From positions 79,429 to 143,428 of the forward strand of contig CABMDC010000001.1 in the NCBI GenBank assembly GCA_902384795.1: a DNA stretch of 64,000 nt, written 5' to 3'. Source of the stretch: Candidatus Gugararchaeum adminiculabundum (GTDB lineage: Archaea > Micrarchaeota > Micrarchaeia > Burarchaeales > Gugararchaeaceae). Below, piece by piece: positions 4,667 through 41,840 of the stretch; within the stretch, counting starts at the first letter, position 1; the number at the start of each line of letters is the position of its first letter. A model generated the notes under the pieces. That model saw nothing but the letters and a program-made list of their open reading frames with translations. It was not told where the DNA came from and searched no databases. The translations under genes were made by a program, and so were the position numbers.

Positions 4667-4695
4667 TGATAGAATGAAAATAATTTGTGATGTTC

Positions 4696-5490: not shown

Positions 5491-5492
5491 AC

Positions 5493-5744
5493 ATGGCATT
5501 AATCAAATACCCAATAACAACGGAAAAGGCAATCGGAATGATTGAGCTGCAGAACAAGATAGTGTTCGTAGTTGACAAGAGCGCAACCAAGCCCGGAGTA
5601 AAAGAGGAAGTCGAGAAAACATTCGGGGTCAAGGTCGCGCAGGTCAACATCCTCATAACCCCCAAGGGGCAGAAGCGCGCCTATGTCAAGCTGGCAAAAG
5701 GATTCTCAGCCGACGAGGTCGCTGCGAAGATGGGCGTCGCGTAG
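5493..5744 (+). CDS. rpl23: 50S ribosomal protein L23 (uL23)
   Basis: 83 aa at the expected cluster position, with a typical L23 fold signature (KIVFVVDKSATKPGVKEEVEKTFGVKV). Confidence 0.9.
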   Translation: MALIKYPITTEKAIGMIELQNKIVFVVDKSATKPGVKEEVEKTFGVKVAQVNILITPKGQKRAYVKLAKGFSADEVAAKMGVA

Positions 5745-5787
5745 GGCAGTTAACGTTGAATGTAGATGACAATTAATCGGTGAACAA

Positions 5788-23810: not shown

Positions 23811-23860
23811 TTGCGTTCACAGAGAGAAAATCAAAACAAAAAAAAAGAAAAGTGACAATT

Positions 23861-24220
23861 ATGAAATCAGGACCGGAAAACGAGCACATCATCGATCTCG
23901 CGCGCTTCCTGCGCAAACAATCAGTGGAGCACAAGGCTCCCATATGGCGCAGGATTGCCGACGACCTCACAGCCCCGCGCAGGAACAAGATTGAAGTGAA
24001 CATCAGCAAGCTCGCGCGCCTTTCCCAGGACGGAAAAGTCATCCTGGTGGCTGGAAAGGTTCTGGGCTCTGGAAGGATTGACAAGAAGGTTGAAGTGGCC
24101 GCGGTTGCATTCTCAAAAACCGCCCGCGAAATGATTACAAAGGCAGGCGGAAAATGCCTGGAGATTAAGCAGGTAGTTGAAAGCAAGCCAACAGGAAACG
24201 GCGTGCATTTAGTAAAATAG
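23861..24220 (+). CDS. rpl18e: 50S ribosomal protein L18e
   Basis: Archaeal L18e (HIIDLARFLRKQSVEHKAPIWRRIADDL...RRNKIEVNISKL). ATG follows GTGACAATTATG. Confidence 0.85.
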   Translation: MKSGPENEHIIDLARFLRKQSVEHKAPIWRRIADDLTAPRRNKIEVNISKLARLSQDGKVILVAGKVLGSGRIDKKVEVAAVAFSKTAREMITKAGGKCLEIKQVVESKPTGNGVHLVK

Positions 24221-24255
24221 AATTTATTTGAAAATAAAATTTACAGATGATATTT

Positions 24256-24699
24256 ATGGCAAAACAGCTTGTAATTGACGCGAACAATGGCGTACTGGGC
24301 AGGATCGCAGCCAGGGTTGCAAAGCACCTGCTGGGCGGCGATTCCATAGTCCTGGTCAATGCAGAAAAGCTGGTAATCTCCGGGGATCCGGCAGTGACCG
24401 CCGAGAAATACCTCGCGCGCAGAAGGGTGAAGAACAAGGCAAACCCCGAGCACTCGCCCAAGTGGCCGCGCAGGCCTGACTTCCTGGTGCGCAGGGTAAT
24501 CCGCGGAATGCTCCCATTCTATTCCAGACGGGGAAGGAATGCATTCAAGAACCTGAGAGTTTACATTGGTATTCCTGAAGAGTTCGCAAACGCAAAGCTG
24601 ATGGAATTCGAGCAGGCGAGCGCAAACCTTCTTGATTCAAAGAAAAGATGCACGGTCGAGCAATTGTGCACAAGAATGGGCTTCAGATTAGAGAAATAG
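24256..24699 (+). CDS. rpl13: 50S ribosomal protein L13 (uL13)
   Basis: VIDANNGVLGRIAARVAKHLLGGDSIVLVNAEKLVISG. ATG follows GATGATATTTATG. Confidence 0.9.
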   Translation: MAKQLVIDANNGVLGRIAARVAKHLLGGDSIVLVNAEKLVISGDPAVTAEKYLARRRVKNKANPEHSPKWPRRPDFLVRRVIRGMLPFYSRRGRNAFKNLRVYIGIPEEFANAKLMEFEQASANLLDSKKRCTVEQLCTRMGFRLEK

Positions 24700-24751
24700 A
24701 TGAAATAAAATTGAACGATGAAAAAGAAACGCGAAAATTAATGTGATATTT

Positions 24752-25201
24752 ATGGACGCAACCGCAACACCGAAACCAAAGAAAAAGAAGGCAGCAGCGA
24801 AATCCAAATCAATAACTGAGAGAGGAAAGCGCAAGGAGAGCGTTGCGCGCGCATCCATCAAAAAAGGAAAGGGAACGGTCCGCGTGAACAGGTTCAATGT
24901 GAACGCGCTCCCTGACAAATATTTGAAGGCAGTAATCACCCAGCCGCTCGCCATCGCAGGCGCCGCGGTGAATGATGTTGACATCGATGTCACTGTTTAC
25001 GGCGGAGGCCCCATGGGCCAGGCCCAGGCAGTGGCGAATGCGATCACAAAAGCGATTCTCGCCTACACCAAGGACGATTCCCTCAGGCACAGGTTCCTGG
25101 AGATCGACAAGTTCCTGGTGGTTGAGGATTCAAGAAGGGTTGAGCCCAAGAAATACAAGGGACCCAAGGCAAGGGCCAGGTTCCAGAAGAGTTACCGTTA
25201 A
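24752..25201 (+). CDS. rps9: 30S ribosomal protein S9 (uS9)
   Basis: GKRKESVARASIKKGKGTVRVN...GGGPMGQAQAVANAITKAIL...RFQKSYR. Confidence 0.92.
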   Translation: MDATATPKPKKKKAAAKSKSITERGKRKESVARASIKKGKGTVRVNRFNVNALPDKYLKAVITQPLAIAGAAVNDVDIDVTVYGGGPMGQAQAVANAITKAILAYTKDDSLRHRFLEIDKFLVVEDSRRVEPKKYKGPKARARFQKSYR

Positions 25202-25233
25202 ACAAACAGCCATTGGCTGGATTGGTGGTATGA

Positions 25234-25431
25234 ATGTTATTCCCCATAAGATGTTTCACCTGCGGCGCAGTGATTGCTGACAAGTACGAGGATTTCGTTG
25301 AAAAGACGCGCGAAGGCGAGGACAAGGGCAAGGTATTGGACAAGCTCGGAGTGGAGAGATACTGCTGCCGAAGGATGTTCCTCACGCACGTGAATGTAAT
25401 AGACGACATATCGCTTTGCGATAGGTTCTAG
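25234..25431 (+). CDS. rpoN: DNA-directed RNA polymerase subunit N (Rpo10)
   Basis: 65 aa. [13 protein letters not shown]...CCRRM zinc-binding motif. Confidence 0.88.
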
Positions 25432-25456
25432 GTCCATAAAATTCATAAAATCGGAA

Positions 25457-25529
25457 GGGGCTGTGGGCTAACCTGGCATGCTTCCAGCTTGGGGTGCTGG
25501 CGATCTGAGTTCAAATCTCGGCAGCCCCA
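25457..25529 (+). tRNA. tRNA-Pro (anticodon GGG)
   Basis: Acceptor GGGGCTG/CAGCCCC. Anticodon loop TTGGGGT in stem CCAGC/GCTGG. T-arm GAGTTCAAATCTC. The overlapping minus-strand ORF is spurious. Confidence 0.85.
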
Positions 25530-25537
25530 TTGCCCAT

Positions 25538-25562
25538 CCTTTTCTTTTGCGAAAAGAAAAGG
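25538..25562 (+). terminator. Perfect 11-bp stem hairpin ccttttctttt-gcg-aaaagaaaagg just downstream of tRNA-Pro
   Basis: Inverted repeat seen directly. Terminator or processing hairpin. Confidence 0.45.
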
Positions 25563-25769
25563 CTGGTCGAATCCAAAAGAAAAAATGAGTGACAAGCAAG
25601 AACTCGAAAACGCGCGGATGAAAAGCTCGCGATAACTCGCTCGCTTTTCCTCCCAACATTATATTTGCGCAAGTTCTCCCGAAGAAGTGGATGAAAGCGC
25701 CGGTTGCCATCGGCTGCCGGCAGGGTGCTTTCGCGCCTATTGCCTGCGGGGCTCTTGTACGGTGATTAA

Positions 25770-26600
25770 ATGAGTGATTTGTTAATACAGCAGGAAAAAT
25801 ATCTTGAGGCAGGAGTGCACATCGGCACAAAAATAAAATGCGCCGACATGATCCGCTTCATCTACAAGGAGCGCGAAGACCGCCTTTTCGTTTTAGACCT
25901 TAGAAAAATTGACGAGAGGATCAAATACGCCGCAAAAGTAATTGCCAATTACAAGCCCGAGGATGTCGCCGTTGTCGCTTCCCGTTTGTACGCTGAAAAC
26001 GCGGCAAGAAAATTCTGCGAGCTCACCGGAGCAAAACTGATTTCCGGAAGATTCGTTCCGGGAATGTTTACCAACACAATCAGGCCCAACTTCGCAGAGC
26101 CGAAGCTGGTTCTCATCTGCGATCCAAGAGGCGAGAGGCAGGCTGCAATTGAGGCCGGCCAGCGCGGAGTTGCGGTGATCGGATTGTGCGACACTGACAA
26201 CCGCACCTCATTCATAGACTTCGTAATCCCCTGCAACAACAAGGGGCGAAAGTCGCTTGCACTTATTTTCTACCTTCTGGCGCGCGAGCTCCTGAAGGCA
26301 AAGGGAGTGATCTCCGACTATTCGGACTTCGCGGCCAAGCTCGAGGAATTCGAGGAATTCAAGGACGAGCCGGTCGAAGGCGAAGGGGCGGAAGGAGAAG
26401 GCGCGGCTGGAGCAGAGAAATCCGAAGAGGCTGCGGACTCCAAGCAGGTCCTTGAAGTGGAAAAAACCATTGAAGAGGCAAAAAAGCCCTCAAAACCAAG
26501 GAAAAAGAAAGAGCCTGCTGAAGGCGAAGCGACCGAAGCTGCGGCAAAGGACGAGTCTGCATCAGCCAAAGCTCCGGCTGAAGAAAAACCCGACGAATAA
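25770..26600 (+). CDS. rps2: 30S ribosomal protein S2 (uS2) with a roughly 75-aa acidic/Ala-rich C-terminal tail
   Basis: YLEAGVHIGTKIKCADMIRFIYKEREDRLFVLDL...LICDPRGERQAAIEA. TATA cattatattt at 25657-25666 and SD GGTGATTAAATG. Confidence 0.9.
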   Translation: MSDLLIQQEKYLEAGVHIGTKIKCADMIRFIYKEREDRLFVLDLRKIDERIKYAAKVIANYKPEDVAVVASRLYAENAARKFCELTGAKLISGRFVPGMFTNTIRPNFAEPKLVLICDPRGERQAAIEAGQRGVAVIGLCDTDNRTSFIDFVIPCNNKGRKSLALIFYLLARELLKAKGVISDYSDFAAKLEEFEEFKDEPVEGEGAEGEGAAGAEKSEEAADSKQVLEVEKTIEEAKKPSKPRKKKEPAEGEATEAAAKDESASAKAPAEEKPDE

Positions 26601-26659
26601 GGAATACGGGAAAATCGCGGCCGCAGTCCAGCGAGCCAATTGAACACACGTTATTCGAT

Positions 26660-27955
26660 CTAGCCAATGCTATTGTACAGGTAGCCGTCATCCGCTGGCG
26701 GCGCCGCAGTCTTTCCTATCTTGTTGCACTCGTTTATCATGTATTGGTTCGATGCGGTCGGAGCAATCTCGCCGCACAATGCCGTATTATTCTGCGCCAC
26801 CGCCACGTTGTAGAAGCAGTTTGCCTGGCACGAATCGTCAAAGTTTATATTTCTGCATCCCTGTGCTGAAAGTCTTGAGGTGTAATCTGGATTGGTGGAA
26901 ATCTGCAAGCAGCAGACATACAATCTCTGGTAGTCATTCTCCGCAGAGGCGCAGTCGCCCGGGTTTGCAGTCGCCTTTGCAACTGCAATAACACAGCCGT
27001 CCCTGTTCATAATGGTGAGGACGTTCTTGCAAACACTTACGTCCTGCAGCAGGAGCGCCATTTTTGTGTAGCAGTCATTCCTTGCCGGCTCGGTGTACAA
27101 ACTCTTGCAAAGCGTGGCATCCTTCTTCCGTTCAGCCATTGTCTGGTAGCAGTCATTGATGTAAAATTCCTTGGTGGTGGAAGCGCATGCGTTCGCGTCA
27201 TTCTTATTGAACGCATAGAGCTCGTAGCACAAGTCCCGCGAAACGGTTATCTCAGGGTTTGCGCAGTAGGACCAGTCGCTCGAAACAATGGCCTTGCAGG
27301 CATAGCCATAGGCTGAATTTGTTATCACGCTGCAGGCCGCAAAATCGTTCCTTTGTATCGCATACTGGAGCATGCAGTCATTGGGCGCAGGCGAATCAGT
27401 GCACCTGGTCACATCGTTCTTGTCCAGTGCACGACACAATGTCTTGTTGGAAAGGTCGTCTATCCCCGCGCAGGGCGCGTTGGTTTTGCCCAGGCACTCG
27501 GCCTTTAGCGTTTCGTTTTCAATCGCATTGCAATAGGCGCTGGAATTTTTGGTTTGCGCGGCAAGCAAAAGGCAGGTGTCGCGCTTCATTTCGCTCGTTA
27601 TCTGGCTGCACAACTTGGTGTCTTTCAATGCCTGCGAGTAGAAGCAGTCATCCCTGATATTCATGTTTGTAATCCGCCCGCACATGGCGGAATCTCCTTT
27701 TGAAAGGCTCTCCTGGAAATAGCAGTTGTCCATATCGTTTATATCGGTCATCTCCTGGCATCCTTTCAGCGCCACATCTGTGGAGTCGTTCACTACCGTT
27801 CCTCCCCCGTTGTCCGAACCGTTTCCAATCGTTCCATTCCCTGTCCCAGGCTTCACCACCGGCTGGGGCGTGCCAGTGCATCCTGCGAGCAAAAGCATGG
27901 ACGCGACAATAACAATAAGCAATGCAATCCTCGAATCAGTGTTTTTCATAGCCAT
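26660..27955 (-). CDS. Secreted lipoprotein built from about 17 tandem Cys-rich repeats of roughly 22 aa
   Basis: Signal peptide with lipobox LLLAGC. Recurring unit C-x(8-9)-(R/N)D-x-C-(Y/F/L)-x3-A-x(5-8). About 36 Cys. The 7-nt gap to the upstream KaiC-like gene suggests co-transcription. Confidence 0.7.
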   Translation of the reverse strand: MAMKNTDSRIALLIVIVASMLLLAGCTGTPQPVVKPGTGNGTIGNGSDNGGGTVVNDSTDVALKGCQEMTDINDMDNCYFQESLSKGDSAMCGRITNMNIRDDCFYSQALKDTKLCSQITSEMKRDTCLLLAAQTKNSSAYCNAIENETLKAECLGKTNAPCAGIDDLSNKTLCRALDKNDVTRCTDSPAPNDCMLQYAIQRNDFAACSVITNSAYGYACKAIVSSDWSYCANPEITVSRDLCYELYAFNKNDANACASTTKEFYINDCYQTMAERKKDATLCKSLYTEPARNDCYTKMALLLQDVSVCKNVLTIMNRDGCVIAVAKATANPGDCASAENDYQRLYVCCLQISTNPDYTSRLSAQGCRNINFDDSCQANCFYNVAVAQNNTALCGEIAPTASNQYMINECNKIGKTAAPPADDGYLYNSIG

Positions 27956-27961
27956 GGAATT

Positions 27962-28708
27962 TCACGCCCTTTTTTTTGTTATACTTACTCCGCCTTTCCC
28001 AATTATAAAAACATAGGGTGAGTCATCAATGTGCGTCAGGCGCATTTTCAGCACTTCAATCATGCGCGTCCGCTTTCCCTCTATATTGGCGTGCATCATG
28101 CGCACGACCCCGTCGCACACATACTCGCTCACCGTGTCGCGCGAAAGGAAATGGGTGGATTCCGGAAGCTCGGAAATGACCAATGACGTGGCCCCGATTC
28201 CCTTGAGCTTTCCCACAAGCCCCATAATGGCCCCGCGCCGGACAGCCTCGCTCTGGGGAATCTCCCGGTGCTCGCTCCTTACGCCCATCATCTGCAAAAG
28301 CTCCACCCCGGCAAGCACTTCGCTGTATACTCCGAGCACAGTAATGGAATCAATGACAATCCGCTTGGCCTTCAGCCTCTTTGCCTCTGCCTCAATGGAG
28401 TTGATTATATTGACCGGGTGTGTGGCAGACATGTTGAAATTCAGCAGCCTGAGAAATCCCCTTTTCTCGCATCCCTCCAAATCCCAGCCAAACTGCCTTG
28501 CCTGCTCAAGCACCAATGGCCGGTTCTCCTCGAAAGTCACATAAAGCGCAGGCTCGCCTGTGGCAATTCCCGCATAAACATACTGGAGGCCCATGATGGA
28601 CTTGCCGCATCCCGGAGAGCCGCTCACCAATACGGTCGAGCCCTCTGGAATCCCGCCGTCCATCAGCTCGTCAAGCCCTGGCACTCCTGTCTTGACTAGA
28701 GGAATCAT
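27962..28708 (-). CDS. KaiC/RadA/ArlH-like single-domain RecA-superfamily ATPase
   Basis: TGVPGLDELMDGGIPEGSTVLVSGSPGCGKS (Walker A) and KRIVIDSITVL (Walker B). 248 aa. Confidence 0.8.
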   Translation of the reverse strand: MIPLVKTGVPGLDELMDGGIPEGSTVLVSGSPGCGKSIMGLQYVYAGIATGEPALYVTFEENRPLVLEQARQFGWDLEGCEKRGFLRLLNFNMSATHPVNIINSIEAEAKRLKAKRIVIDSITVLGVYSEVLAGVELLQMMGVRSEHREIPQSEAVRRGAIMGLVGKLKGIGATSLVISELPESTHFLSRDTVSEYVCDGVVRMMHANIEGKRTRMIEVLKMRLTHIDDSPYVFIIGKGGVSITKKRA

Positions 28709-28773
28709 AGTATCGGGTAATAGAATGAATAGATACTATATAAATATTGGGTAAAGATTAGGAAAAATCGGGT

Positions 28774-30849
28774 TTGCATACAACTCAGTTTTCCCAAGTA
28801 CTCCGCACCGTAAGATTTAAGGCAATAGCTAGTTTAACTAGAATTATGACTGAGAAGAAACCAGATTATCTCGGCGAGTATAGAATACATGGCGATAACA
28901 TTGTTGAATGCGAGCGAACATTAGATTTGATTTCAGAAGCTTTCGAGCTAGAAATTAGTTATGATCGCGGTCCAATGTATGCGCCTATCTACAACCTCGA
29001 CAAAGACGGAACGAACGTCGCTTCTGTCCAGCTATTCCCAGGATATGATAGATGGGGCGTGAATATCCAAAAGATACTAAAGCAAAATGGCGCCCCTCTG
29101 CGCGAAGCCGCCGATGCGATACTTACGAGGTTGACATCTAAGAATAAAGAGGAGATAATCTTTTCAATCGAATTCTGTAATGCGTTGCCTGCAGGAAATA
29201 ATGCGTGGCAGAGAACTGGCCGAGCTCTGGCTACTGCATCTGCAGGAATACCGTATTTGTATTATGCAGACTTGGGTGGTGTTGAACTCGACGAAGAAAG
29301 AGGGACAAAAGCACACAGATACCCAAACCCTCTAGTTCCATTCTCGTATATCACTCTTGGTTTGAATTATGGAGCTCTTTCGATTCCAGTTTACGCTCCG
29401 AGCCCATCAAGTCCTGAGGATGTTCGATTGCAGTTTAGAGAAACGTTCGGTCTTAGGGAAGGAAAGGAACTTGTGAAGTGTTTAATATCGGGAGTATCCA
29501 CCGATGCAGTCAAGAAAACGCTTACAGAACGAACGCTGATATTAGTAGAGCTGCTAGCAAGCCTTCGCAGACAAGATGATACGTTCAAAGGTTCTGATTG
29601 GAGAAAGTTTTTAGGACTGAAAAAAACAGAAGAGAAGATTAAGTGGCTGGAGAGTAAAGGGATGCGTTGGTCAAAGAAAAATGCCTCCAAGGTCAGAACA
29701 ACAAATACATTTCAGAAATTGATTTCTCTTGTAACTGGCGCGGGCAGTATCTCTGTTGGTGCGAGCGACATCCCAATATGTTTGATACCTGCCACGAAAA
29801 GAGGCAACTTAGCTAAGAGAATAAGTGAGTTATATGGTTCTTCGAAGCGTGATAAGTTTTATGAATGGTTTACCTCTAAAAAGTCCGCGCTTTTGATTGT
29901 CTGGATAACAGGATTTAAACCGCACGGGGACGATTCCCGGCCGGATCGGGGCTTGGTTCCACTCGCCCGTATGCTATTTGGCCAGGATATAGATGTATTG
30001 AGTATAGTTTACGGGCCAGCACCATCGAGTACGTGGAGTAAATTGAAAGCATCCCCCGCTGAGTTGGCTGAAGATAACGGCTTATGGGAATCAATCATAA
30101 ATCTTAGCGATGGATTGTTGGTCGATAGTGCAACTCTGCCTCAACGCCCGCTCACCATGTTATTGAGCAGTAAACGTATCCCCGCTAGTCGCAATCATTC
30201 GTTCTCTATGGCTAGCGCAGTTACAAAATTTTCAGAACAAGATGTCGATTCAGTTATACACTTTTTATTCTCAAAAAGTAACCTAACGGATATATTCGAA
30301 TGTATGTGTAACCCTCCAGGTGGTGATTGGAGTGGTCTATCTTTCCTAGATTTTAAAACAAAAATTCAGTATAGATGGACATCTCTGCCGCGGGTTTCGA
30401 AAAGTAACGGAAAAAGACCAGACCATGTAATAGAGATAAAACTAGGCGATGGTCGTGTTGCCGCTTTATCTATAGAATCAAAAGAAAAGGCAGTTGCTTT
30501 TGAAGACGGCATGGGTCTTCGCCTTGATAGATACATTTCTGATTTGATTAAAATGCCACCAAACGTCTATAGAAAAGATTCTGCTGACTGGGTCTTTGAT
30601 GTCAATCCAATTCAACTCAAAGAAAAGATAGTCTATCTTTCCGGTGCTGCTTATTGCTGGCGCGACGCTACAGAGTTAAAAAAAGTATTCAAAAGAGGTA
30701 AATTCGATTTTGTTTTTGCCTTTGAATTTTTTGAAAAAGAAGAACGAATAGTATTGCACGTTAAAGCCAGCGATAGCACTAAATCTATCCTAGAAAAAAT
30801 CTTAGCTAAAATGAACAAGACGGACGCGCTAGAAATCCAAGTACACTGA
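28774..30849 (+). CDS. Large hypothetical protein, candidate restriction endonuclease partner of the adjacent MTases (PD-(D/E)xK-like motif in the C-terminal third)
   Basis: 691 aa with protein-like composition. The C-terminal region has RPDHVIEIKLGDGRVAALSIESKEK, giving PD-x19-ExK spacing. It is convergent with the Dam-like MTase and their 3' ends overlap by about 20 bp. The start is uncertain: TTG at 28774 or ATG at 28846. TATA ctatataaat lies at about 28733. Confidence 0.4.
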   Translation: MHTTQFSQVLRTVRFKAIASLTRIMTEKKPDYLGEYRIHGDNIVECERTLDLISEAFELEISYDRGPMYAPIYNLDKDGTNVASVQLFPGYDRWGVNIQKILKQNGAPLREAADAILTRLTSKNKEEIIFSIEFCNALPAGNNAWQRTGRALATASAGIPYLYYADLGGVELDEERGTKAHRYPNPLVPFSYITLGLNYGALSIPVYAPSPSSPEDVRLQFRETFGLREGKELVKCLISGVSTDAVKKTLTERTLILVELLASLRRQDDTFKGSDWRKFLGLKKTEEKIKWLESKGMRWSKKNASKVRTTNTFQKLISLVTGAGSISVGASDIPICLIPATKRGNLAKRISELYGSSKRDKFYEWFTSKKSALLIVWITGFKPHGDDSRPDRGLVPLARMLFGQDIDVLSIVYGPAPSSTWSKLKASPAELAEDNGLWESIINLSDGLLVDSATLPQRPLTMLLSSKRIPASRNHSFSMASAVTKFSEQDVDSVIHFLFSKSNLTDIFECMCNPPGGDWSGLSFLDFKTKIQYRWTSLPRVSKSNGKRPDHVIEIKLGDGRVAALSIESKEKAVAFEDGMGLRLDRYISDLIKMPPNVYRKDSADWVFDVNPIQLKEKIVYLSGAAYCWRDATELKKVFKRGKFDFVFAFEFFEKEERIVLHVKASDSTKSILEKILAKMNKTDALEIQVH

Positions 30850-31641
30850 CTCGAAAACCGACTGGTTCATTTTGTCCATGACTTTTTTAAATGAGGAATT
30901 ACCAGACTTCAAAAGCAGATGGCGTTCATACACCTCTTCAGGCAGTTTAGTTGGGTAGACGATATCTCCTCTCATTCCGTCATAGGACAAAACATAGTGA
31001 ACGCCTTTATTGTTCAAATCATGAAGTGCTGAAACAAATTCCTCATAGTCTATTTTTCCATAGTACCTACCGCGCGTGTTGAAATACGGGGGATCCAAAT
31101 AAGCAAAATCGGAGCTCGTTGCCATTTTAAGAATCTCCTTATAATCTCCATGTATAAACTCCACCTTCTTGATAACCTTCGACCAATCCTTGATTATTTT
31201 TTCAATTCGCGAAGGTTGAATCCCGCGCCTAGTGTAGTGGAGTGAATTGTTAAACTCGCCATTGCTGTTGAAGCGTATGAGGCCATTTACGCAAGTTCGA
31301 CTTAAGAAAAACAGATCTTCTGGGTTTTGGTTTTCATTGAATCGGTCTCTTATTTCATAAAAGATAGTATGACCCTGGCTCTGTAATCTTTCCCAATCTT
31401 TTGTATACGCCCTTACCAAAGTCTCCGGGTCTTGCTGAATAAGTCTCCATAAGTCGATCAAAGGTTTACAAATGTCACTAGCTACCGCGAAGTCAGGTTT
31501 GCGTTTCTCCAAAACGGCATACAAAACTGATCCTCCACCGAGAAATGGTTCGTAATAGGTTTCGAACTCTGGGAATAGCTCTACCAAAGCATCTGCTTGG
31601 CTTCTTTTACTACCGCTCCATTTTATGACGGGATCAATCAC
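30829..31641 (-). CDS. N6-adenine DNA methyltransferase, alpha class (Dam/DpnM/MboIA-like, D12 family)
   Basis: N-terminal KWSGSKR and FxGxG-like EPFLGGGSV. C-terminal catalytic DPPY (AYLDPPYFN). 270 aa. Confidence 0.85.
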   Translation of the reverse strand: MIDPVIKWSGSKRSQADALVELFPEFETYYEPFLGGGSVLYAVLEKRKPDFAVASDICKPLIDLWRLIQQDPETLVRAYTKDWERLQSQGHTIFYEIRDRFNENQNPEDLFFLSRTCVNGLIRFNSNGEFNNSLHYTRRGIQPSRIEKIIKDWSKVIKKVEFIHGDYKEILKMATSSDFAYLDPPYFNTRGRYYGKIDYEEFVSALHDLNNKGVHYVLSYDGMRGDIVYPTKLPEEVYERHLLLKSGNSSFKKVMDKMNQSVFESVYLDF

Positions 31642-32500
31642 CAGATAACCTCGTTTGTTTCTTATTCTGCTTTTCGTAATCTAGACGTTTATTTGTTAGT
31701 TCTATATATTGCTTTTCAATTTCGAAACCGATAAATCTTCTTCCAAGTTTAAACGCAGCAAGACACTCACTACCAGATCCACAAAATGGCACTAGAACTA
31801 GGTCATTGGGGCGAGAAGTTGCTAAAATAATCCTTTCACATATTCGCAATGGTTTTTGAGTCGGATGTTTACCAAACCGCAACTCTTCCGGTTTTTTATT
31901 GTTTGGGATATCCCATACCGTTCTCATCTGTTTCCCCCGCTTTTTAAGGAGATCTTCTTTACAGTCCATCTCTTTTGTGTCTTGGTAATTAAACGTGTAT
32001 CTACGCCTACCCCCCCCGGTGTGCCCCCATAAAAGAGTCTCATGGCTTGCAGTAAATCTCCTCCCTGCAAGGTTTGGGAAAGAATTCCGTTTGTACCAGA
32101 TGATTTCGTTAATTATCTCTATACCCAGTTTTTGGAATAAAACATTAGTGACTCCTATATTGTGGTATGTCCCATAAACCCATATCGAACCAGTCGGTTT
32201 TAAGACCCTCTTTGCTTCGTTCAACCATATTTGGGTAAAATCCCAGTAATTTTGAAACGTCATATTGTCCCAATCGACTATTACCTTGTCCCAGTTGCCC
32301 CCCATACCATTTAGTTTTACGCTATTGTTCCATCTAAGTGGTTTGCCTTTCGAAAGGTTATATGGCGGGTCAGCAATAATGAGGTCAACAGACTCAGCAG
32401 GCAATTTCTTCATGCCTTCTATACAATCCCCGTTGATAATCCTATTAACGAAAGATGTCAGTTGGGAATCATTAGTGGCACTTTCATTTTTCATCTTCAC
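31634..32500 (-). CDS. N6-adenine/N4-cytosine DNA methyltransferase, beta class (DpnA/MboIB/HinfI-like)
   Basis: N-terminal catalytic IIADPPYN and C-terminal SAM motif VLVPFCGSGSECLAAF. The circularly permuted beta order. Overlaps the downstream MTase by 8 nt, so they form an operon. Confidence 0.85.
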   Translation of the reverse strand: MKMKNESATNDSQLTSFVNRIINGDCIEGMKKLPAESVDLIIADPPYNLSKGKPLRWNNSVKLNGMGGNWDKVIVDWDNMTFQNYWDFTQIWLNEAKRVLKPTGSIWVYGTYHNIGVTNVLFQKLGIEIINEIIWYKRNSFPNLAGRRFTASHETLLWGHTGGGRRRYTFNYQDTKEMDCKEDLLKKRGKQMRTVWDIPNNKKPEELRFGKHPTQKPLRICERIILATSRPNDLVLVPFCGSGSECLAAFKLGRRFIGFEIEKQYIELTNKRLDYEKQNKKQTRLSGD

Positions 32501-32685: not shown

Positions 32686-35463
32686 CTATTCAATAAATAT
32701 GCTCGGCTTATTGGGCTGGGAAAACTCCGCCTTCTTTTTGTGCGCCTCTCCCATTTTCGCGGCATCCTCTTCCTTCATCACTGAAAATTCGCAGGAAAAC
32801 TCTTTTCCCAAAAATTCCGCAGCCCCTTCCAGCACTTTCACTTCTTCCTTCTGGCTCATCAACTTCGAACTCAGTCCCGCAACGTTTTTCACATACTGCT
32901 CCACTGCCTTGGCCACCATCTTTGCATAGGGCTTGACTTCAGGCAGAGCCATTGCCTTTTTCATGCTCGTATCAAATCTTTTCTCAGCATAAACAATTTC
33001 ATACACTTTTCTCTTCCAGTCGCTTGCGCAGTAGATTGAAATCTTCTTTGGCGGCTCGGTCCTCTTTATCATCTTCAGGATATTCTCAGTATCCTCAAGC
33101 AATGAAATCACGAGCTGCTCAGCCCTTTCCGCATTCTCATCGTACTTGGCAGACGCCTTTGGAAGCTTCTGCTCCACCACCATTCCTTTCTTCGTTCCTT
33201 CCAGTTTCTCCCAAAGCTCCTCAGCCAGGTGCGGCATGAAAGGTGAAACAAGTAAAACCCATTCTTCCAGAAGCTTCCGCAAATTCTGCTTCCCGTTCCC
33301 GATCCTCTTCTGGTACCACCTAATGTCATTAATCGTATTGTAAAAAATCTCCTGAGCCACTTCTCTTAGCTGCAATTGCTCAAACAATTCCTCGGCGTGG
33401 GCAACTCTTTTCCCCCAGCGTGAGGCAAGCCACTTGTCCGCATCGCTCTTTCCCCACTCCGCTTTGTCCTTGTTTTTCACGCTCTGCTCAATCAAATCAT
33501 TTATGATTTTTATCCTGGCATCAATCCCCTCGGCAAGCGTCTGGTTGAAATCGCTGTCAGCCCCAAGCTCAGCCCCGCTCACCACCGAGAACCGAACAAC
33601 ATCCGCTCCAAACTTTTTGACCGCACTTCTCAGCGAAAGAATATTCCCCAGCGATTTGCTCATTTTCCCGCCGTCCATGAGCACGAACCCATTGGTCACA
33701 ATTTGCCTGGGCCAAAGCTCGTGCGGGAAAATCGCCACATGGTTGAAGATGAAAAATGTCAGGTGATTGTGAATCAGGTCAGCGCCCGAGTGCCTGGAAT
33801 CCAGCGGATACCAATAGAGGAATTCTTTTCTCAGCGCGTCCATTTTCGCATTCCCCTTCCCCTCGCCAAGCAAAACATAGTCAAAGAATTTCTCATCCAA
33901 TTCCTCTGGCTTGAGTTCTGCCAATTTGTGCGCAATAGTATAATATGCCATGTAAATCGTTGAATCAGAAAGCGACTCAATCATTTTTTTCTCATCAAAC
34001 GGGAATTTCGTTCCCAGCCCGCTCGCGCGTGCGCAAGCTTTTTCTTTCAGCCAATTAATCGTATATTCATATTCAGCAATCGCTTTTTTCGGAATAATGC
34101 TCATTTTCGCAAAATGCCCGCGCACCTTTTCTTTCCACTCCTCATTCCCATAATCAATGAACCACTGGTCCTCAACTGTTTTCACTCCGCACAGCGCCCC
34201 GCACCTGCAGAAAACAGGCCCATTGATTATCTCATTCATAATTAGCGCTTTCTTTTCTGCAATCATATCTCCCTTGATTTTCTCCTTTGCTTCCAGTACA
34301 GGCTCTCCCTTGTATTTGCCCACAACCATGGTTCCCCCATGCGCCTCCTTCCTATAAACTTCCTTGGTCGCCTCTTCTGCCTTCGGATCATTCTGATCCT
34401 TTACCTGCATCTTCTCAACAACTTCCTTGGCAGGGAATTCCCCGAACCCCTCGATTTTCAGCACTTGAATAATCCCCTGCGCCTTTCCCAAATCCCTTAG
34501 CGCCAAATAGTCATAGGGCGCATGGGCAGGAACGCTCATCACAATTCCTGAGCCGTTTTTTGAATCAACAAAACTCGCTGGGTAAAGCGGCACTTTCTTT
34601 CCGCCCATGGGATTTTCGCATTCTTCCCCGCTTGCAATCTTCACATTCTTTTCTTCAACTGTCAAATCAGAATGCCGCATTTTCAATTTCTCAGCAGCCT
34701 CGGCCGAGACCACAAATTTCTCCCCGTTGAATTTCACTTTCACATAATTCGCTTTCGGGTTGAACCAGACATTGGTCACTCCGTAAATAGTTTCAGGCCT
34801 GAATGTGGCAGCCACAAGGAAGCCATCCTTATACTTGAATTTTATGAGCACATATTCGCCAAGCTCAGGGTCCACATCTCCCTTGGTATCATGGGAGCCG
34901 ACCGCATTATTGTCGCGCGGGCACCAGGGAACCGGATGCGAGCCCTTGGTAATAAATCCAAGCCGCTTCAATTTTCTAAATTGCCACTCAATGAATTTGT
35001 TGAACCGGGGATCAAAGGTGTAGAACTTCCTTCTCCAGTCAATGGAAAATCCCATCTCCTGCATTCCCTGCTCGATCTCCTTGGAGAAATAGGTCACCAA
35101 TTCCTTTGGGTCAGTCAATTCCGCAGCTTTCCCCCTCGGGATTCCATAAATGGTCTCAAAAATTTTCAGCAGCTCCTCATCCTTTTCGGCAATCCGTTTC
35201 GCCATTGCCAAAATTGGAGTTCCTGTTACGTGAAAAGCCATGGGCAGGAGCACGTTCTTCCCCTGCATCCTCTTGAATCTTGCATAAACGTCAGTAGTGG
35301 TGTAGGTTCTCGCATGGCCGATATGCTGGGGCGAATTCGGGTAGGGGAACGCGGCGGTCAGATAGAATTTTTCCCTTTTATCCGGGTTGCTCTCGTAGGC
35401 TTTCTTTTCGCGCCATTTTTTCTGCCATTTCGATTCAATTAGCTGGTAATCCATCTCTCCCAT
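32686..35463 (-). CDS. leuS: Leucyl-tRNA synthetase (archaeal/eukaryal type)
   Basis: 925 aa. HIGH motif (PYPNSPQHIGHARTY) and KMSKS (GGKMSKSLGN). Confidence 0.95.
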   Translation of the reverse strand: MGEMDYQLIESKWQKKWREKKAYESNPDKREKFYLTAAFPYPNSPQHIGHARTYTTTDVYARFKRMQGKNVLLPMAFHVTGTPILAMAKRIAEKDEELLKIFETIYGIPRGKAAELTDPKELVTYFSKEIEQGMQEMGFSIDWRRKFYTFDPRFNKFIEWQFRKLKRLGFITKGSHPVPWCPRDNNAVGSHDTKGDVDPELGEYVLIKFKYKDGFLVAATFRPETIYGVTNVWFNPKANYVKVKFNGEKFVVSAEAAEKLKMRHSDLTVEEKNVKIASGEECENPMGGKKVPLYPASFVDSKNGSGIVMSVPAHAPYDYLALRDLGKAQGIIQVLKIEGFGEFPAKEVVEKMQVKDQNDPKAEEATKEVYRKEAHGGTMVVGKYKGEPVLEAKEKIKGDMIAEKKALIMNEIINGPVFCRCGALCGVKTVEDQWFIDYGNEEWKEKVRGHFAKMSIIPKKAIAEYEYTINWLKEKACARASGLGTKFPFDEKKMIESLSDSTIYMAYYTIAHKLAELKPEELDEKFFDYVLLGEGKGNAKMDALRKEFLYWYPLDSRHSGADLIHNHLTFFIFNHVAIFPHELWPRQIVTNGFVLMDGGKMSKSLGNILSLRSAVKKFGADVVRFSVVSGAELGADSDFNQTLAEGIDARIKIINDLIEQSVKNKDKAEWGKSDADKWLASRWGKRVAHAEELFEQLQLREVAQEIFYNTINDIRWYQKRIGNGKQNLRKLLEEWVLLVSPFMPHLAEELWEKLEGTKKGMVVEQKLPKASAKYDENAERAEQLVISLLEDTENILKMIKRTEPPKKISIYCASDWKRKVYEIVYAEKRFDTSMKKAMALPEVKPYAKMVAKAVEQYVKNVAGLSSKLMSQKEEVKVLEGAAEFLGKEFSCEFSVMKEEDAAKMGEAHKKKAEFSQPNKPSIFIE

Positions 35464-35527
35464 GGGCTATTCTTTGCGCCGACAACTATTTTTAACTAAC
35501 CCCGCGGATTGGAGGCAGGCAATGAGC

Positions 35528-36691
35528 CTAGCCCCCCTCAATGCCCTCAACAAGCAGGCCTTTTGCAAAAGCAGTTTGGATTTCAGTCCAATTTTGGCCC
35601 AGTTCGCTCCTGTACCTTCCGTCGCTCGAACCTTGCACCAGCTCTTTTATGTGTTTTTCATCCCTGGCTTCAATGGATCCCTTCAATTCCTTGAGCAGAT
35701 CGATTCTTTTCGCGATTTCAGGAAATTTCGCCCTGAGTTCTTCGTCTTTTACTCTGATCACTTTTTCAAGCGTGCCCATTTCCTTTTCCATGGCAATGCG
35801 CGCATCGTCCCATCTCACATCCCATTTGCCTTTCGCGCCCATTGCATTGTTTATTTCCCTCTGGGTAACCTGCATTGCGGAGAAAACTTTCCTGGCGCTT
35901 GCCCTGCTTCCGGTCTCCCCCCGCACCTCGTCTCTTACTTCGATTATCGGCCTGGGCGCATCGCCCTCTCTCAGGTCCTCTTCCACATACCTTCTTTGTA
36001 TCGCGCTGACATCTTTTCCATCCAGGCGGGTTCCATCCGGCCTTTCATAGAGCCGGGCCGACTGGTTGTAAACATATCTCCTGCCATCCTCTGTTTCAAT
36101 GTAGGATTTCCCGTCATCCGTTGCCCCCATTGTCCAGTTCTGAATTTTTTTCTCCTCTTCCTTTGTTATCCCCAGCGCAGGCCCCAGGGGCGAGGCCGCG
36201 GTCACATCCGGCGTTTCCGCTTTGGTCTTACCCTGAACCATCACAATCTGTTCCTGCGTTCTCTTGACCGCCTCTTCCAGTTGAATTCCATCAGCCATAA
36301 AATTTTCAAAAAGCGCGAATTTTCCTTCCACATACAGTTTCCAGCTGTGCTCATCCATAAAATTTTGCGGAGCCGTGTCCTTGACCATGTTCGCGCTCCT
36401 GCTGCTCTCAACCTGCTGCTGGCGCGCATTATTCAGGGTCTGCATAACCGCCGCCTGGCCCAGCAACATCCTCGCATCCATCTCCAGTTTTGTGGATTTT
36501 GCGAGATTCTCGAGAATCGTTTGCCAGCCGGGCTTATTCACGCCCAGGGCTCTGAAAAGAAGATTCTGGTCATTCTTGAAAGTTTCCCTGATAAACCGGC
36601 TATTGTTCCAAACATTATTGATTGCCTGCAGCACTTGCGCGGGAATTTCGTTTTTCAGCTGCGAAGATTGCGCCCCATCAGATCCCGCCAA
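35528..36691 (-). CDS. Hypothetical soluble protein (387 aa, charged, no TM or signal peptide), divergently transcribed from the paralog array
   Basis: Protein-like composition. The antisense ORFs on + (35462-36872) have garbage-like composition. Confidence 0.6.
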   Translation of the reverse strand: MAGSDGAQSSQLKNEIPAQVLQAINNVWNNSRFIRETFKNDQNLLFRALGVNKPGWQTILENLAKSTKLEMDARMLLGQAAVMQTLNNARQQQVESSRSANMVKDTAPQNFMDEHSWKLYVEGKFALFENFMADGIQLEEAVKRTQEQIVMVQGKTKAETPDVTAASPLGPALGITKEEEKKIQNWTMGATDDGKSYIETEDGRRYVYNQSARLYERPDGTRLDGKDVSAIQRRYVEEDLREGDAPRPIIEVRDEVRGETGSRASARKVFSAMQVTQREINNAMGAKGKWDVRWDDARIAMEKEMGTLEKVIRVKDEELRAKFPEIAKRIDLLKELKGSIEARDEKHIKELVQGSSDGRYRSELGQNWTEIQTAFAKGLLVEGIEGG

Positions 36692-36807
36692 GGCATCACC
36701 GCTAATTCACGCTCATCCGTCATTTATATTCCTTGTTCTTCCCCTTTGCCAAGCAGGTTTGCCGATGGCAATAATTTTTAAGCTGGAACCAGCAAATTCC
36801 CCCTTGC

Positions 36808-38106
36808 ATGATGCTCGAATCGCTAGCCTTACTAGCCCTGGACCCGGCTGCCATAGCCTACAACTTTGCTAACGGCTGGGGGCCTATAGCGCTAATCGCC
36901 TTAGCAGTCTCCTTCATCACCACCGCCCTGTCATTCATGTTCTCCGACGTCCTGAACTCCCCTGAGCTGAAGGCCTGGGCGAAAAACGAGCTGAACGAGG
37001 CGCTGATTTCCGGCTTCCTGGTGATTTCCCTCCTGACCCTTCTCACCATCTCAAGCAGCCTGATCCAGGGAATGACCGGCTCCAACGATCATTTTGCGCT
37101 CGGCAGGGAATACCTGGAATTCATGCACACCCGCCTGCGCACCCTCTACTATTCCATGCTCTGGAAGGATTTCTACATCGGCATCATCTCCTCCATGGGA
37201 ATGTCGGTTCCTGTGCCCGAGCCGGGAATACTGAACATAGGAATGCAGCTCCAGCCCCTGCTCGGGCTGATGCAGATAAACAACGCGCTCACGCTCCTGC
37301 TCGATTCGGTTGCGGTAATGGAAGTTTCCATCGTCGCGCAGCAGGCGATACTGGATTTCGTGCGAGACTACGCACTCCTGGTTTTCCTGCCCATAGGGCT
37401 CACCCTGCGCGCGTTCGTGCTCACGCGCAAGGTCGGCTCGACCCTTATCGCCGTCGCAGTGGCCATGGCGCTGGTCTATCCCCTTGCGCTCTACCTGAAC
37501 CTGCAAATAATCGAGAATACCAGCATGGCGCCGCACCAGGTGAACCCCTATTTCTACAACGAGTCCTACAAAAAAGGCTCGGTCCTGACCGATACGCAGA
37601 AAGGCGTTTTCGGAGGGCTCAACCTGGAGCTTTCCCAGTCGGACAGCATTCTCAAGCCCAGCGATAGCTGCCCTGACGGGACCTCGCCGGTTTCCACCTC
37701 CGATTCCATCGCAGGCCTGCGCTCGTGCTTTGTGAAACAGGTCGTTGAATACGACCCGTACAACAAGAATAGCGGGGTCAACTGCGACCCTTCGTTCTAC
37801 TCGTGCAAGCTGGCGGCCGCCTACAGCAACGCGAAAATGTTCATGAAAAACATTTATGTGAAATCAGTCACCTTCTTCAAGACAATGTACACGTTCATCT
37901 CGAATTTCATGTTCTTCTCGCCAGCGGATTACGCGAACATGGCCTATGCGAGCCTGATGACAGACCTCGACCCGGTAATGCAATTGATGGTCGCGGCAGT
38001 CCTTCTCCCGTTCCTGGACATCATAATCGTTGTGACATTTTTCCGGAGCATCTCGCTCACGCTTGGCGGAGAGGCGCAGCTGTTCGGAATGCAGAAATAC
38101 GTTTAG
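36808..38106 (+). CDS. Polytopic membrane protein, paralog 1 of 6 of a novel family (AWAKNE / LPxGxxLRxFxxTR motifs)
   Basis: 432 aa with about 5-6 TM segments. AWAKNE at 36973-36990. FLPIGLTLRAFVLTRKVGSTLIAVAVAMALVYP. A large Cys-containing extracytoplasmic loop. TATA aataattttta about 30 bp upstream. Confidence 0.8.
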   Translation: MMLESLALLALDPAAIAYNFANGWGPIALIALAVSFITTALSFMFSDVLNSPELKAWAKNELNEALISGFLVISLLTLLTISSSLIQGMTGSNDHFALGREYLEFMHTRLRTLYYSMLWKDFYIGIISSMGMSVPVPEPGILNIGMQLQPLLGLMQINNALTLLLDSVAVMEVSIVAQQAILDFVRDYALLVFLPIGLTLRAFVLTRKVGSTLIAVAVAMALVYPLALYLNLQIIENTSMAPHQVNPYFYNESYKKGSVLTDTQKGVFGGLNLELSQSDSILKPSDSCPDGTSPVSTSDSIAGLRSCFVKQVVEYDPYNKNSGVNCDPSFYSCKLAAAYSNAKMFMKNIYVKSVTFFKTMYTFISNFMFFSPADYANMAYASLMTDLDPVMQLMVAAVLLPFLDIIIVVTFFRSISLTLGGEAQLFGMQKYV

Positions 38107-38214
38107 TGGTTAAAATAAAAAATGAAACAGAAAATGGGATGAAGAATGGAAACAAAAAACGAAAGATGAAAAATAAACTGAAATAAAAAGAATCGAAGCA
38201 TGGGATGAAGCAAA
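38107..38214 (+). repeat. Purine-only (A/G) spacer with reiterated ATGAAA/ATGGAA units between paralogs 1 and 2
   Basis: The + strand is almost entirely A and G. Contains a K-rich mini-ORF (MKNGNKKRKMKNKLK). Confidence 0.6.
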
Positions 38215-39102
38215 ATGGTCTGTGACATAAACGTGGGATTCAACCTGGACGTGGGCATTGCGCTAATGCTCATGCTGCTATTGGTCTCCATAGCCTACAT
38301 GCTTTCCCAGGCTTTCAAGCGCCAGGACTGGGAGCTTTGGGCGCGCATGGAACTGGTGCAGGTCGGAGTCTCATTCCTTATCGTGATTTTCATAGGCGGC
38401 TTTGCCTATTCCATGTGCAGCGCGTCTGTTTTCCTGGCAGGCGGCGACCCTTTTGAAATCAGCGAGCAGTACATCTCAAACATCAACTGGCACTACCTGT
38501 TCCCCGCACATTACCAGCTCCAGGTTTTGAGCTTCCAGTCAAGCGCGCTTTCAACGCTTTACACAAAATTTGGCACTGGCAACTGGAATTTCCAATTCCC
38601 CGTTTTCCCCGGAGTGGGGGGAATTTCCCAGGTGAGCACAACGCTCATGGTCATGCTGAGCCCCATAAGCCTGAGCATGGTTTCGCAGCTGGTGCTACTC
38701 CAGTTCATACAGACCATCGCCCTGCAGGCGATCCTTCCGGTCGGGCTCATACTGCGGATTTTCCCGGTCACGCGCGATGCCGGCTCGTTCCTGATCGCGA
38801 GCGCAATCGCGTTCTACATAATTTTCCCCTGGACCTATGTGGTGAATGCCAAGGCGTTCGAATCGATCTGGGGCAATGACCCGATTGCAAAAATGACCGA
38901 AAGCGTAAATGCCCATTTCTCCATGGCGAATTTCATGCCGGGATTTTTCACAGGTTTCATGAACCCCGAACGATTCATGCTCCTCTACGCGACGCTCGCG
39001 CGCACAATCCCCCAGGCGCTTTTCCTGCCCGCGCTTTCCATGGTGATCACGGTCACGTTCATCAAGGCGTTCACCAAAGTGATGATTCGGAAATTGAATT
39101 GA
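38215..39102 (+). CDS. Polytopic membrane protein, paralog 2 of 6 (shortest, 295 aa)
   Basis: YMLSQAFKRQDWELWARMEL and ILPVGLILRIFPVTRDAGSFLIASAIAFYIIFP. Lacks the C-terminal LTxLI tail. Confidence 0.75.
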   Translation: MVCDINVGFNLDVGIALMLMLLLVSIAYMLSQAFKRQDWELWARMELVQVGVSFLIVIFIGGFAYSMCSASVFLAGGDPFEISEQYISNINWHYLFPAHYQLQVLSFQSSALSTLYTKFGTGNWNFQFPVFPGVGGISQVSTTLMVMLSPISLSMVSQLVLLQFIQTIALQAILPVGLILRIFPVTRDAGSFLIASAIAFYIIFPWTYVVNAKAFESIWGNDPIAKMTESVNAHFSMANFMPGFFTGFMNPERFMLLYATLARTIPQALFLPALSMVITVTFIKAFTKVMIRKLN

Positions 39103-39121
39103 CATTATTAGGTTGGTTGAA

Positions 39122-40357: not shown

Positions 40358-40428
40358 TTTGAATAAAATAAAACGAAGTGAAATAAAATGGAAAAAGTAA
40401 GAAAACGGAAAAGATAAAGTGAAATGAA
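40358..40428 (+). repeat. Purine-only spacer between paralogs 3 and 4
   Basis: gaataaaataaaacgaagtgaaataaaatggaaaaagtaagaaaacggaaaagataaagtgaaatgaaatgg. A/G-only with ATG-initiated K/R-rich mini-ORFs. Confidence 0.6.
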
Positions 40429-41721: not shown

Positions 41722-41840
41722 AAAATAAAAATGGAAAGAATGGAAATGAAAAAATGGAAGAAAAAAAGAAAATAAAAAGAAAATGAAAAACAGAAAATAG
41801 AATTTAAATGAAAAAATGAAAATAAGAAGAGGAATAGATT
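41722..41840 (+). repeat. Purine-only spacer between paralogs 4 and 5
   Basis: 119 nt of A/G with repeated (a)atggaa / atgaaaa units. Contains the mini-ORF MERMEMKKWKKKRK. Confidence 0.6.

Follow-up and report, generated by a model that had tools for sequence, protein, structure and literature searches.

A putative lineage-specific operon of Micrarchaeota pairs a KaiC-like ATPase with a lipoprotein predicted to form a cysteine-braced alpha-solenoid

Introduction

DPANN archaea have tiny genomes and rely heavily on the cell surface, and most of their surface proteins are unannotated. Here we analyse a two-gene locus of the Micrarchaeota (DPANN) archaeon 'Candidatus Gugararchaeum adminiculabundum' LFW-121_3, which encodes a KaiC-like ATPase and, directly downstream, a lipoprotein with a cysteine (Cys) repeat array. 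The locus lies in a stretch of 64,000 nucleotides, the whole of which was analysed and is called the window below. Both proteins are 100% identical to Ca. Gugararchaeum database entries, and the components are of known kinds, namely a KaiC-family ATPase, a lipobox lipoprotein and an alpha/alpha solenoid. The metagenome-assembled genome (MAG) originates from a legacy waste trench that is iron-rich and contaminated with radionuclides (PMC8561730).

On the side of the lipoprotein, the closest described systems are the Sel1-like repeat (SLR) proteins HcpB and HcpC of Helicobacter and mitochondrial COA7. Like the lipoprotein, they are exported or extracytoplasmic tandem helix-turn-helix solenoids with two conserved Cys per repeat, which are thought to staple the hairpin, and they are presumed to be binding scaffolds (PMC8892353). 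In contrast to these proteins, the lipoprotein has a repeat of ~26 aa (a long helix of ~15 and a short one of ~6 residues) rather than 34-44 aa, 14 units, an archaeal lipobox anchor, putative disulfides and no Pfam match to SLR or to tetratricopeptide repeats (TPR). TPR and designed helical-repeat (DHR) solenoids, including bacterial TPR lipoprotein scaffolds (PilF, YbgF/CpoB, YfgM), match its predicted fold over ~85-130 residues at 1-11% identity, but with no Foldseek match at E <= 1e-3 and with TM-scores <0.25; against this group, too, the lipoprotein repeat is shorter and putatively Cys-stapled, and there is no sequence-level membership.

On the side of the ATPase, the nearest single-domain relatives in the Protein Data Bank (PDB) are PH0186 (2zts), PH0284 (2dr3) and SSO2452 (2w0m), at profile scores of 172, 162 and 141 bits. 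They share its length of ~250 aa, its one RecA-like KaiC domain (PF06745) and its Walker A, Walker B and catalytic Glu, but their genes stand alone, with no lipoprotein partner known, whereas the window ATPase belongs to a Micrarchaeota-specific subclade. ArlH (FlaH) offers a second likeness, a single KaiC-like domain serving as accessory regulator of a membrane machine; the window gene, however, is flanked by a type II restriction-modification (R-M) system and by the lipoprotein and rps2 genes, and scores 44 bits against the ArlH cut-off of 215. Cyanobacterial circadian KaiC belongs to the same domain family and tops the PDB sequence matches by score, as it holds two copies of the domain. The ATPase is half its length, with one domain, reaches 136 bits against a cut-off of 408, and has no kaiA or kaiB adjacent.

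Our analysis points to an operon, specific to one small lineage, that combines an uncharacterised and probably disulfide-stapled surface solenoid with an accessory KaiC-like switch. We hold this reading to be slightly on the probable side, and roughly a third to a half of that confidence rests on the functional coupling of the two products.

Results

The ATPase and lipoprotein genes are neighbours in a KaiC subclade

A preliminary description of this DNA, made from its sequence, had reported a gene for a KaiC-like ATPase followed by a lipoprotein gene. Both are present as open reading frames (ORFs) at the coordinates given there, on the minus strand, the second one encoding 431 aa with signal peptide and lipobox. 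The gap between them, taken as 7 nt, is a spacer of 6 nt. The features of the locus, with the basis of each call in brackets, are the following.

28737..28744, minus strand: archaeal TATA box TTTATATA, 28 nt 5' of the KaiC ATG, with equivalents in loci L002, L005, L006 and L094 (sequence)
27962..28708, minus strand: KaiC/RecA-superfamily ATPase, single-domain, 248 aa (Pfam PF06745)
27956..27961, minus strand: spacer of 6 nt from the KaiC stop codon (TGA, 27962..27964) to the lipoprotein ATG (sequence)
Overlapping the 3' end of the KaiC gene, minus strand: Shine-Dalgarno (SD)-like purine-rich tract AAGGGCGTGA before the lipoprotein ATG (sequence)
26660..27955, minus strand: lipoprotein ORF, 431 aa (ORF call)
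27878..27955, minus strand: predicted signal peptide and lipobox, residues 1-26, MAMKNTDSRIALLIVIVASMLLLAG followed by the lipobox Cys (sequence, homolog alignment, AlphaFold2 (AF2) model)
27761..27877, minus strand: Gly/Asn/Thr-rich stalk, residues 27-65, predicted to be disordered (pLDDT <50 at residues 37-62; sequons)
26711..27760, minus strand: repeat domain, residues 66-415, 14 predicted alpha-hairpin units (Cys spacing, autocorrelation, AF2 model, alignment)
26660..26710, minus strand: C-terminal tail, residues 416-431, of low confidence, with the stop codon (pLDDT <50 at residues 423-431)
26601..26659, between convergent genes: intergenic region of 59 nt separating the lipoprotein gene from that of ribosomal protein S2
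25770..26600, plus strand: ribosomal protein S2 (rps2)

Related loci were sought with KaiC alignments, and linked relatives were found in L005, L002, L006 and, through a metagenome scan, L094. These four carry the nearest KaiC homologs (46-50% identity), and directly 3' of each lies a lipobox protein of the Cys-repeat family, at gaps of -4, 0, +9 and +11 nt. Among the sampled lipoproteins of the linked loci, and between these and the window protein, identity is only ~25-35%. Four of the linked KaiCs, those of the window, L002, L005 and L006, were part of a neighbour-joining tree of 102 sequences, where they form one clade (clade A), and all clade-A KaiC genes found (5/5: window, L002, L005, L006, L094) stand directly 5' of a lipoprotein gene. 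What lies further upstream varies: L002 and L005 have apgM, L006 has a gene with a phosphoribosyltransferase domain (Pfam Pribosyltran), L094 has one encoding 228 aa, and the window has the gene of a type II restriction enzyme.

The promoter elements follow the same arrangement. Each of the five linked loci carries TTTATATA, TTTAAATA or TTATAAA 21-28 nt 5' of the KaiC ATG (28 nt in the window, 21-22 nt in L002, L005, L006 and L094), while only SD-like purine tracts, and no conserved TATA, stand directly before the lipoprotein start. Since the TATA element precedes only KaiC in all five, the co-transcription assumed in the preliminary description is well supported by sequence, and the gaps of -4 to +11 nt agree with it. 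The window TATA box would then be the promoter of a two-gene transcript, presumably a leaderless mRNA or one with a very short leader. Within the window KaiC gene itself, a TATA-like TTTATA occurs ~50 nt 5' of the lipoprotein start codon. Judged by these sequence comparisons, the KaiC-lipoprotein operon appears to be a lineage-specific arrangement.

The ATPase is a generic stand-alone KaiC-like protein

The ATPase matches Pfam PF06745 at 202.2 bits (E = 1e-59; gathering cut-off 26.6), which places it in the family. It carries a Walker A motif GSPGCGKS (residues 30-37), a catalytic Glu pair within FEE (59-61) and a Walker B motif RIVID (116-120); G30, G33, G35, K36, R116 and D120 are invariant among 19 homologs, and E60 and E61 are invariant in four clade-A sequences. 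The motifs indicate a catalytically intact enzyme, the activity itself being predicted, and KaiC-like proteins of this kind may act by hexameric ATPase or autokinase switching. The protein has no membrane segment.

The preliminary description had set the ATPase beside ArlH-type KaiC homologs and remarked on the missing archaellum genes. An ArlH-type assignment does not hold: the score against the NCBIfam ArlH model NF052589 is 44.2 bits, far under the cut-off of 215, and in the PDB profile search FlaH/ArlH entries reach 60 and 39 bits, with PH0186 and PH0284 far above them. The context gives the same answer, as arlI and arlJ are not adjacent (the neighbours are a type II restriction endonuclease (REase), two methyltransferases and the lipoprotein and rps2 genes). 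Among the larger window ORFs scanned, none matched the T2SSE or T2SSF families. With ArlH rejected, a lack of archaellum genes is no anomaly. Circadian KaiC was likewise rejected, the protein being a single domain of 248 aa that scores 136 bits (cut-off 408) and 106 bits (cut-off 546) with the models NF006799 / TIGR02655. It falls below every NCBIfam equivalog or subfamily cut-off, for instance thermo_KaiC_1 (126/307 bits) and KaiC_arch_3 (125/249 bits). Sequence comparison thus classes it as a generic stand-alone KaiC-like ATPase of the PH0186/PH0284 type, not as an ArlH that has lost its archaellum.

The lipoprotein carries a probable lipid anchor, a stalk and a 26-residue repeat array

The N-terminus of the lipoprotein comprises a K/R n-region, a hydrophobic core and a lipobox L-A-G-C at residues 23-26, in agreement with the Sec lipobox pattern. 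AF2 predicts a helix over residues 8-24, and the lipobox Cys is kept in at least 90% of 33 homologs. The secreted lipoprotein proposed at the outset is thus borne out by a signal peptide and lipobox that homologs share, and the protein is probably exported by Sec and lipid-anchored through the lipobox Cys. The stalk (residues 27-65) contains 3 N-x-S/T sequons, and homologs have NxT-rich linkers at the same place; from these motifs, the flexible stalk is probably N-glycosylated. By prediction, lipoproteins are prevalent among DPANN archaea (PMC12462473).

The array had been described as about 17 repeats of 22 aa with about 36 Cys. The protein in fact has the lipobox Cys and 30 more within residues 66-410, 31 in total. 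Successive Cys are alternately ~12 and ~14 residues apart, and the period is therefore 26 residues. When the sequence is divided at every second Cys, 14 units result, which are 20-32 residues long with a mode of 26 (six units are exactly 26). Each has a C-x(8-15)-C pair, C-x11-C being the commonest form; the motif C-x(8-9)-(R/N)D-x-C-(Y/F)-x3-A of the first description is visible in the units. Self-alignment lends the periodicity statistical support, as the strongest BLOSUM62 autocorrelation occurs at lag 26 (z = 7.1), against a maximum over all lags of 5.0 in 1000 shuffles. With all Cys masked, z is 4.2 (masked shuffle maxima: 95th percentile 3.40, highest 4.54). There is no tandem repeat in the lipoprotein gene at the DNA level, and the array is therefore ancient. 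The C-terminal tail is missing from most homologs.

A word-index protein search with the lipoprotein alone returned one homolog, P0002 (30% identity), and a 33-sequence profile returned three proteins only. This search is too insensitive for this repeat protein, and we therefore ran an exhaustive HMMER search. With a two-sequence profile, it yielded 3,828 cluster representatives at E <= 1e-3, 1,133 at E <= 1e-10 and 55 at E <= 1e-30. The best matches are collinear over ~380-410 residues, and nearly all of them share the layout of signal peptide with lipobox, NxT/S- or Pro-rich linker and Cys-repeat domain. An alignment of 33 sequences (21-33% identity to the window protein) contains 22 invariant Cys columns and five more that are at least 90% conserved, with the repeat consensus (R/K)DxCYxxxA...C..I. 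All named members are annotated as 'hypothetical protein' from Micrarchaeota, and the sampled members are mostly Micrarchaeota.

Known families do not account for this array. The lipoprotein has no match in Pfam, NCBIfam or PADLOC; TPR, Sel1 and other Pfam repeat models match none of the 33 members even at E <= 1; and its profile finds nothing significant among PDB sequences, the top entry being the copper chaperone Cox17 (E = 0.07). As a literature search for a 26-residue Cys-braced repeat family found nothing either, the family appears to be undescribed.

We then consider the predicted fold. Run with the 33-sequence alignment, AF2 returned a model with a mean pLDDT of 88.4 (~97 over residues 66-415) and a pTM of 0.68. 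The model is all-alpha, with 14 long helices (11-15 residues) alternating with short helices (5-6 residues), the short helix coming first in each repeat unit. According to this model, the lipoprotein is an alpha/alpha solenoid of 14 hairpins behind a disordered stalk, in line with the solenoid guessed in the preliminary description. The suggestion of a Sel1/TPR-like fold survives in part: the model is a tandem antiparallel alpha-hairpin solenoid, but there is no Pfam SLR/TPR match and the period of 26 aa (units 20-32) is too short, compared with 34 aa for TPR and 36-44 aa for SLR. The lipoprotein is a distinct short-period, Cys-containing solenoid variant outside the TPR and SLR families.

The outcome is a large lipoprotein family (>3,800 cluster representatives), confidently modelled and without a Pfam, NCBIfam or PDB counterpart, which gains a testable predicted architecture of lipid anchor, glycosylated stalk and 14-hairpin Cys-braced solenoid.

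The cysteines are most likely paired within hairpins

The most likely arrangement is one disulfide per hairpin, which would join the Cys of a short helix to that of the following long helix in the C-x11-C register. This pairing is suggested by the even number of Cys in the domain (30), by a domain that opens with a short-helix Cys and closes with a long-helix Cys, by homolog indels that delete whole C-x11-C units, and by the precedents of Hcp and COA7, which have intra-repeat disulfides in alpha/alpha repeats (PMC8892353). C349 and C376 may form an extra disulfide specific to the window protein.

The Cys pairs could instead be metal-binding or redox-active thiols, serving iron or heavy-metal sequestration or extracellular redox chemistry, with the KaiC-like ATPase part of the same stress response. 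The iron-rich, radionuclide-contaminated origin of the organism (PMC8561730) would suit such a role; so would the related lipoprotein genes (P0123) that adjoin FeoB/FeoA and an iron-dependent repressor near a thioredoxin-fold gene, and the weak, non-significant Cox17 match noted above. On the other hand, the lipoprotein has no CxxC, CxxCH or His-rich motifs, its Cys lie mid-helix at spacings of 12 and 14, a placement like that of disulfide-stapled helical hairpins, its repeat domain is folded by AF2 at pLDDT ~97 without cofactors, and the FeoB neighbourhood is limited to one subclade. We consider a metal or redox role very improbable, and the structural disulfide remains the preferred assignment.

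Lipoprotein genes without an adjacent KaiC and the nature of the link

Several observations weigh against an operon whose two products work together. Seven of the 12 lipoprotein neighbourhoods examined have no adjacent KaiC and carry a TATA box of their own (L001, L088, L089, L090, L091, L092/L093), and the family ORFs of L030 and L043 are not adjacent to one either. These KaiC-free, self-promoted loci show that the lipoprotein needs no adjoining ATPase. Seen from the ATPase, a lipoprotein lies downstream in 0/80 species-representative genome loci with the closest KaiC homologs of that scan (28-49% identity), whose surroundings are tandem KaiC arrays and a wide variety of other genes. Conservation of the pair may in part be inherited synteny beside a ribosomal-protein cluster, and no membrane adaptor (a transmembrane inactivated-KaiC protein, TM-iKaiC) was found in the 64-kb window. 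Two further points concern the lipoprotein itself: thioether lipidation by the archaeal enzymes AliA/AliB has been experimentally shown only in Haloferax (PMC12462473), and the iron-rich source habitat (PMC8561730) is, by assumption, largely anoxic, a setting in which extracytoplasmic disulfide formation is not assured.

The family tree adds detail. The nearest relatives of the window lipoprotein are P0129, P0125 and P0126, each convergent with an L13-S9-RpoN-S2 cluster (L18e first where annotated), without a KaiC gene 5' and with its own TATA-like element. P0159 is a stand-alone gene, and P0002 and P0123 lie downstream of a 2-oxoacid:ferredoxin oxidoreductase (POR) operon. The convergent lipoprotein/S2 arrangement occurs in the window, L094, L089, L090, L091 and probably L005, and the order KaiC-lipoprotein-S2 in the window, L094 and probably L005. 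The conservation of the pair as neighbours thus stands for five loci (window, L002, L005, L006, L094) and fails for seven lipoprotein loci, including L089, L090 and L091 on the rps2 side. The asymmetry between 5/5 and 7/12 is compatible both with an accessory gene joined to a conserved envelope gene and with inherited ribosomal-cluster synteny.

Based on these observations, the two genes could be neighbours without a shared function: an autonomous housekeeping envelope lipoprotein, upstream of which an unrelated signalling ATPase landed in one lineage, lending or borrowing a promoter, and the two would have stayed together by inheritance next to a highly syntenic ribosomal cluster. Such an origin would explain the KaiC-free positional orthologs at rps2 (L089, L090, L091), the P0002/P0123 subclade that sits after the POR operon instead, the TATA box or TATA-like element upstream of unlinked lipoprotein copies and the TTTATA within the window KaiC gene. 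It also agrees with products that reside in different compartments and with the highly diverse neighbours of close KaiC homologs in DPANN loci. It is less easily reconciled with the 5/5 clade-A KaiC genes directly 5' of a lipoprotein gene, with stop and start abutting or overlapping, or with an adjacency kept despite ~50% KaiC and ~70% lipoprotein divergence and different upstream flanks. In addition, the other four linked lipoprotein genes have no TATA of their own, and their expression therefore depends on the KaiC promoter. Chance neighbourhood is a possibility of some weight, yet on balance a doubtful one.

We therefore return to the operon with an accessory switch as the preferred reading. 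The lipoprotein would be exported by Sec, anchored to lipid by its lipobox Cys and N-glycosylated on its stalk, and its elongated 14-hairpin solenoid would most likely, in the manner of TPR and Sel1-like solenoids, provide a rigid scaffold at the outer side of the membrane that binds proteins or ligands. In Micrarchaeota, its gene usually stands alone beside the rps2 cluster, and by sequence comparison one small KaiC subclade has come to sit directly upstream, so that one promoter drives both genes. As the ATPase lacks a membrane segment and the lipoprotein a cytoplasmic part, the two cannot touch, and any link is therefore co-expression or indirect regulation. In the weakest step of the proposal, the KaiC-like switch may act via a membrane partner on the same envelope process. 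The link, if true, would point to KaiC-based control of an archaeal envelope; if not, the definition of the family is still useful.

Other KaiC partners in Micrarchaeota

Makarova et al. (2017, as cited in PMC5847659) are reported to have proposed KaiC-like ATPases as archaeal signalling hubs with inactivated-KaiC partners. The lineage-specific operon is one concrete, comparatively supported case for KaiC-family ATPases as archaeal regulatory hubs, and the idea likewise gains from fusions of a Cys-rich ectodomain, a membrane helix and an inactive KaiC domain in related genomes. In L003/L020, L004, L016, L017 and L021, the gene of a distinct KaiC clade (clade B) is preceded by that of a ~930-990-residue protein with 9-12% Cys (incomplete in L004, at a contig end). 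In these proteins, a single transmembrane helix separates an ectodomain from a C-terminal domain; the C-terminal domain of the L003 copy (3337..5964) is matched to the KaiC profile by hhalign (92.7%, E = 4e-7) and has a degenerate Walker A, GSGKE. The L003-type protein and its KaiC are a candidate KaiC-based transmembrane signalling pair, and they show that in Micrarchaeota a membrane adaptor with an inactivated KaiC domain can connect KaiC-like ATPases with Cys-rich modules outside the cytoplasm. Homology of the clade-B ectodomain to the solenoid was considered and rejected, as the lipoprotein HMM does not match it.

By analogy, the window pair might itself signal directly across the membrane, the lipoprotein being the extracellular sensor or ligand arm and the KaiC-like protein the cytoplasmic output, with a membrane adaptor encoded elsewhere. 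The L003-type proteins that precede KaiC homologs, the KaiC-like C-terminal domain of the L003 copy and the proposed hub role of these ATPases speak for it. Neither the 64-kb window nor the five linked loci, however, yielded a TM-iKaiC adaptor, the Cys-rich ectodomain and the solenoid are not homologous, and the two KaiC clades are distinct. Direct transmembrane signalling seems to us distinctly unlikely.

A wider proposal, which we rate as unlikely though a little less so, is that the ~400-aa lipoproteins represent a new class of 26-residue disulfide-stapled hairpin repeat, a conserved surface scaffold of Micrarchaeota and other DPANN for envelope organisation or cell contact. In one lineage it would have been wired to a dedicated KaiC-like switch acting over its production or a membrane partner, as a KaiC-based envelope control module without a described counterpart.

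Two further KaiC arrangements were observed. Many Micrarchaeota loci (L007-L012, L014, L015, L018 and others) contain two or three tandem KaiC-like paralogs. In several DPANN loci (L008, L025, L026, L030, L031), KaiC is followed by a conserved low-Cys protein of ~375 aa, with no Pfam match where tested (L008, L025).

Neighbouring genes and further observations

The lipoprotein gene of the window (23852..27955 region) and of L089, L090, L091 and L094 is a positional ortholog, convergent with L18e-L13-S9-RpoN-S2 in divergent Micrarchaeota, and this synteny is unusually stable for a surface-protein gene. The S2 proteins at these loci have long acidic or K/E-rich C-terminal tails. In L092/L093 and L001 (the P0123/P0002 subclade), the lipoprotein gene follows a POR operon of four genes, and in L092/L093 it is flanked by FeoB, by FeoA with an iron-dependent repressor and by a thioredoxin-fold gene, a possible redox or iron hint. 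L002 contains a type IV pilus-like cluster (1..3924; a T2SSE ATPase and two T2SSF) ~2 kb 5' of the pair, with apgM on the other strand in between; no such cluster was seen near the window pair.

Divergent from the KaiC gene, the window carries a type II R-M island (28774..32500). It comprises a 691-aa type II REase (PADLOC REase_II, 8e-125; no Pfam match) and, on the minus strand, a D12 N6-adenine methyltransferase (30829..31641) and an N6_N4 methyltransferase (31634..32500). GC content is 0.40 at 30-32 kb and ~0.51 elsewhere, which suggests horizontal acquisition.

Further along the plus strand, the stretch 35462..44341 opens with a 439-aa ORF, followed at 36808..44341 by six tandem paralogs of 295-455 aa that are 22-28% identical over long alignments. 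They have mostly hydrophobic N-termini and no Pfam match, and constitute an uncharacterised expanded membrane or surface family. A probable giant surface protein of 1,917 aa (48131..53884, plus strand) carries bacterial Ig-like (Big_7) and FG-GAP repeats; after it come more ORFs with no Pfam match and a MinD/ParA-type ATPase (57324..58106). An IS200-type Y1 transposase (PF01797, 4e-27) lies at 60541..61017 on the plus strand.

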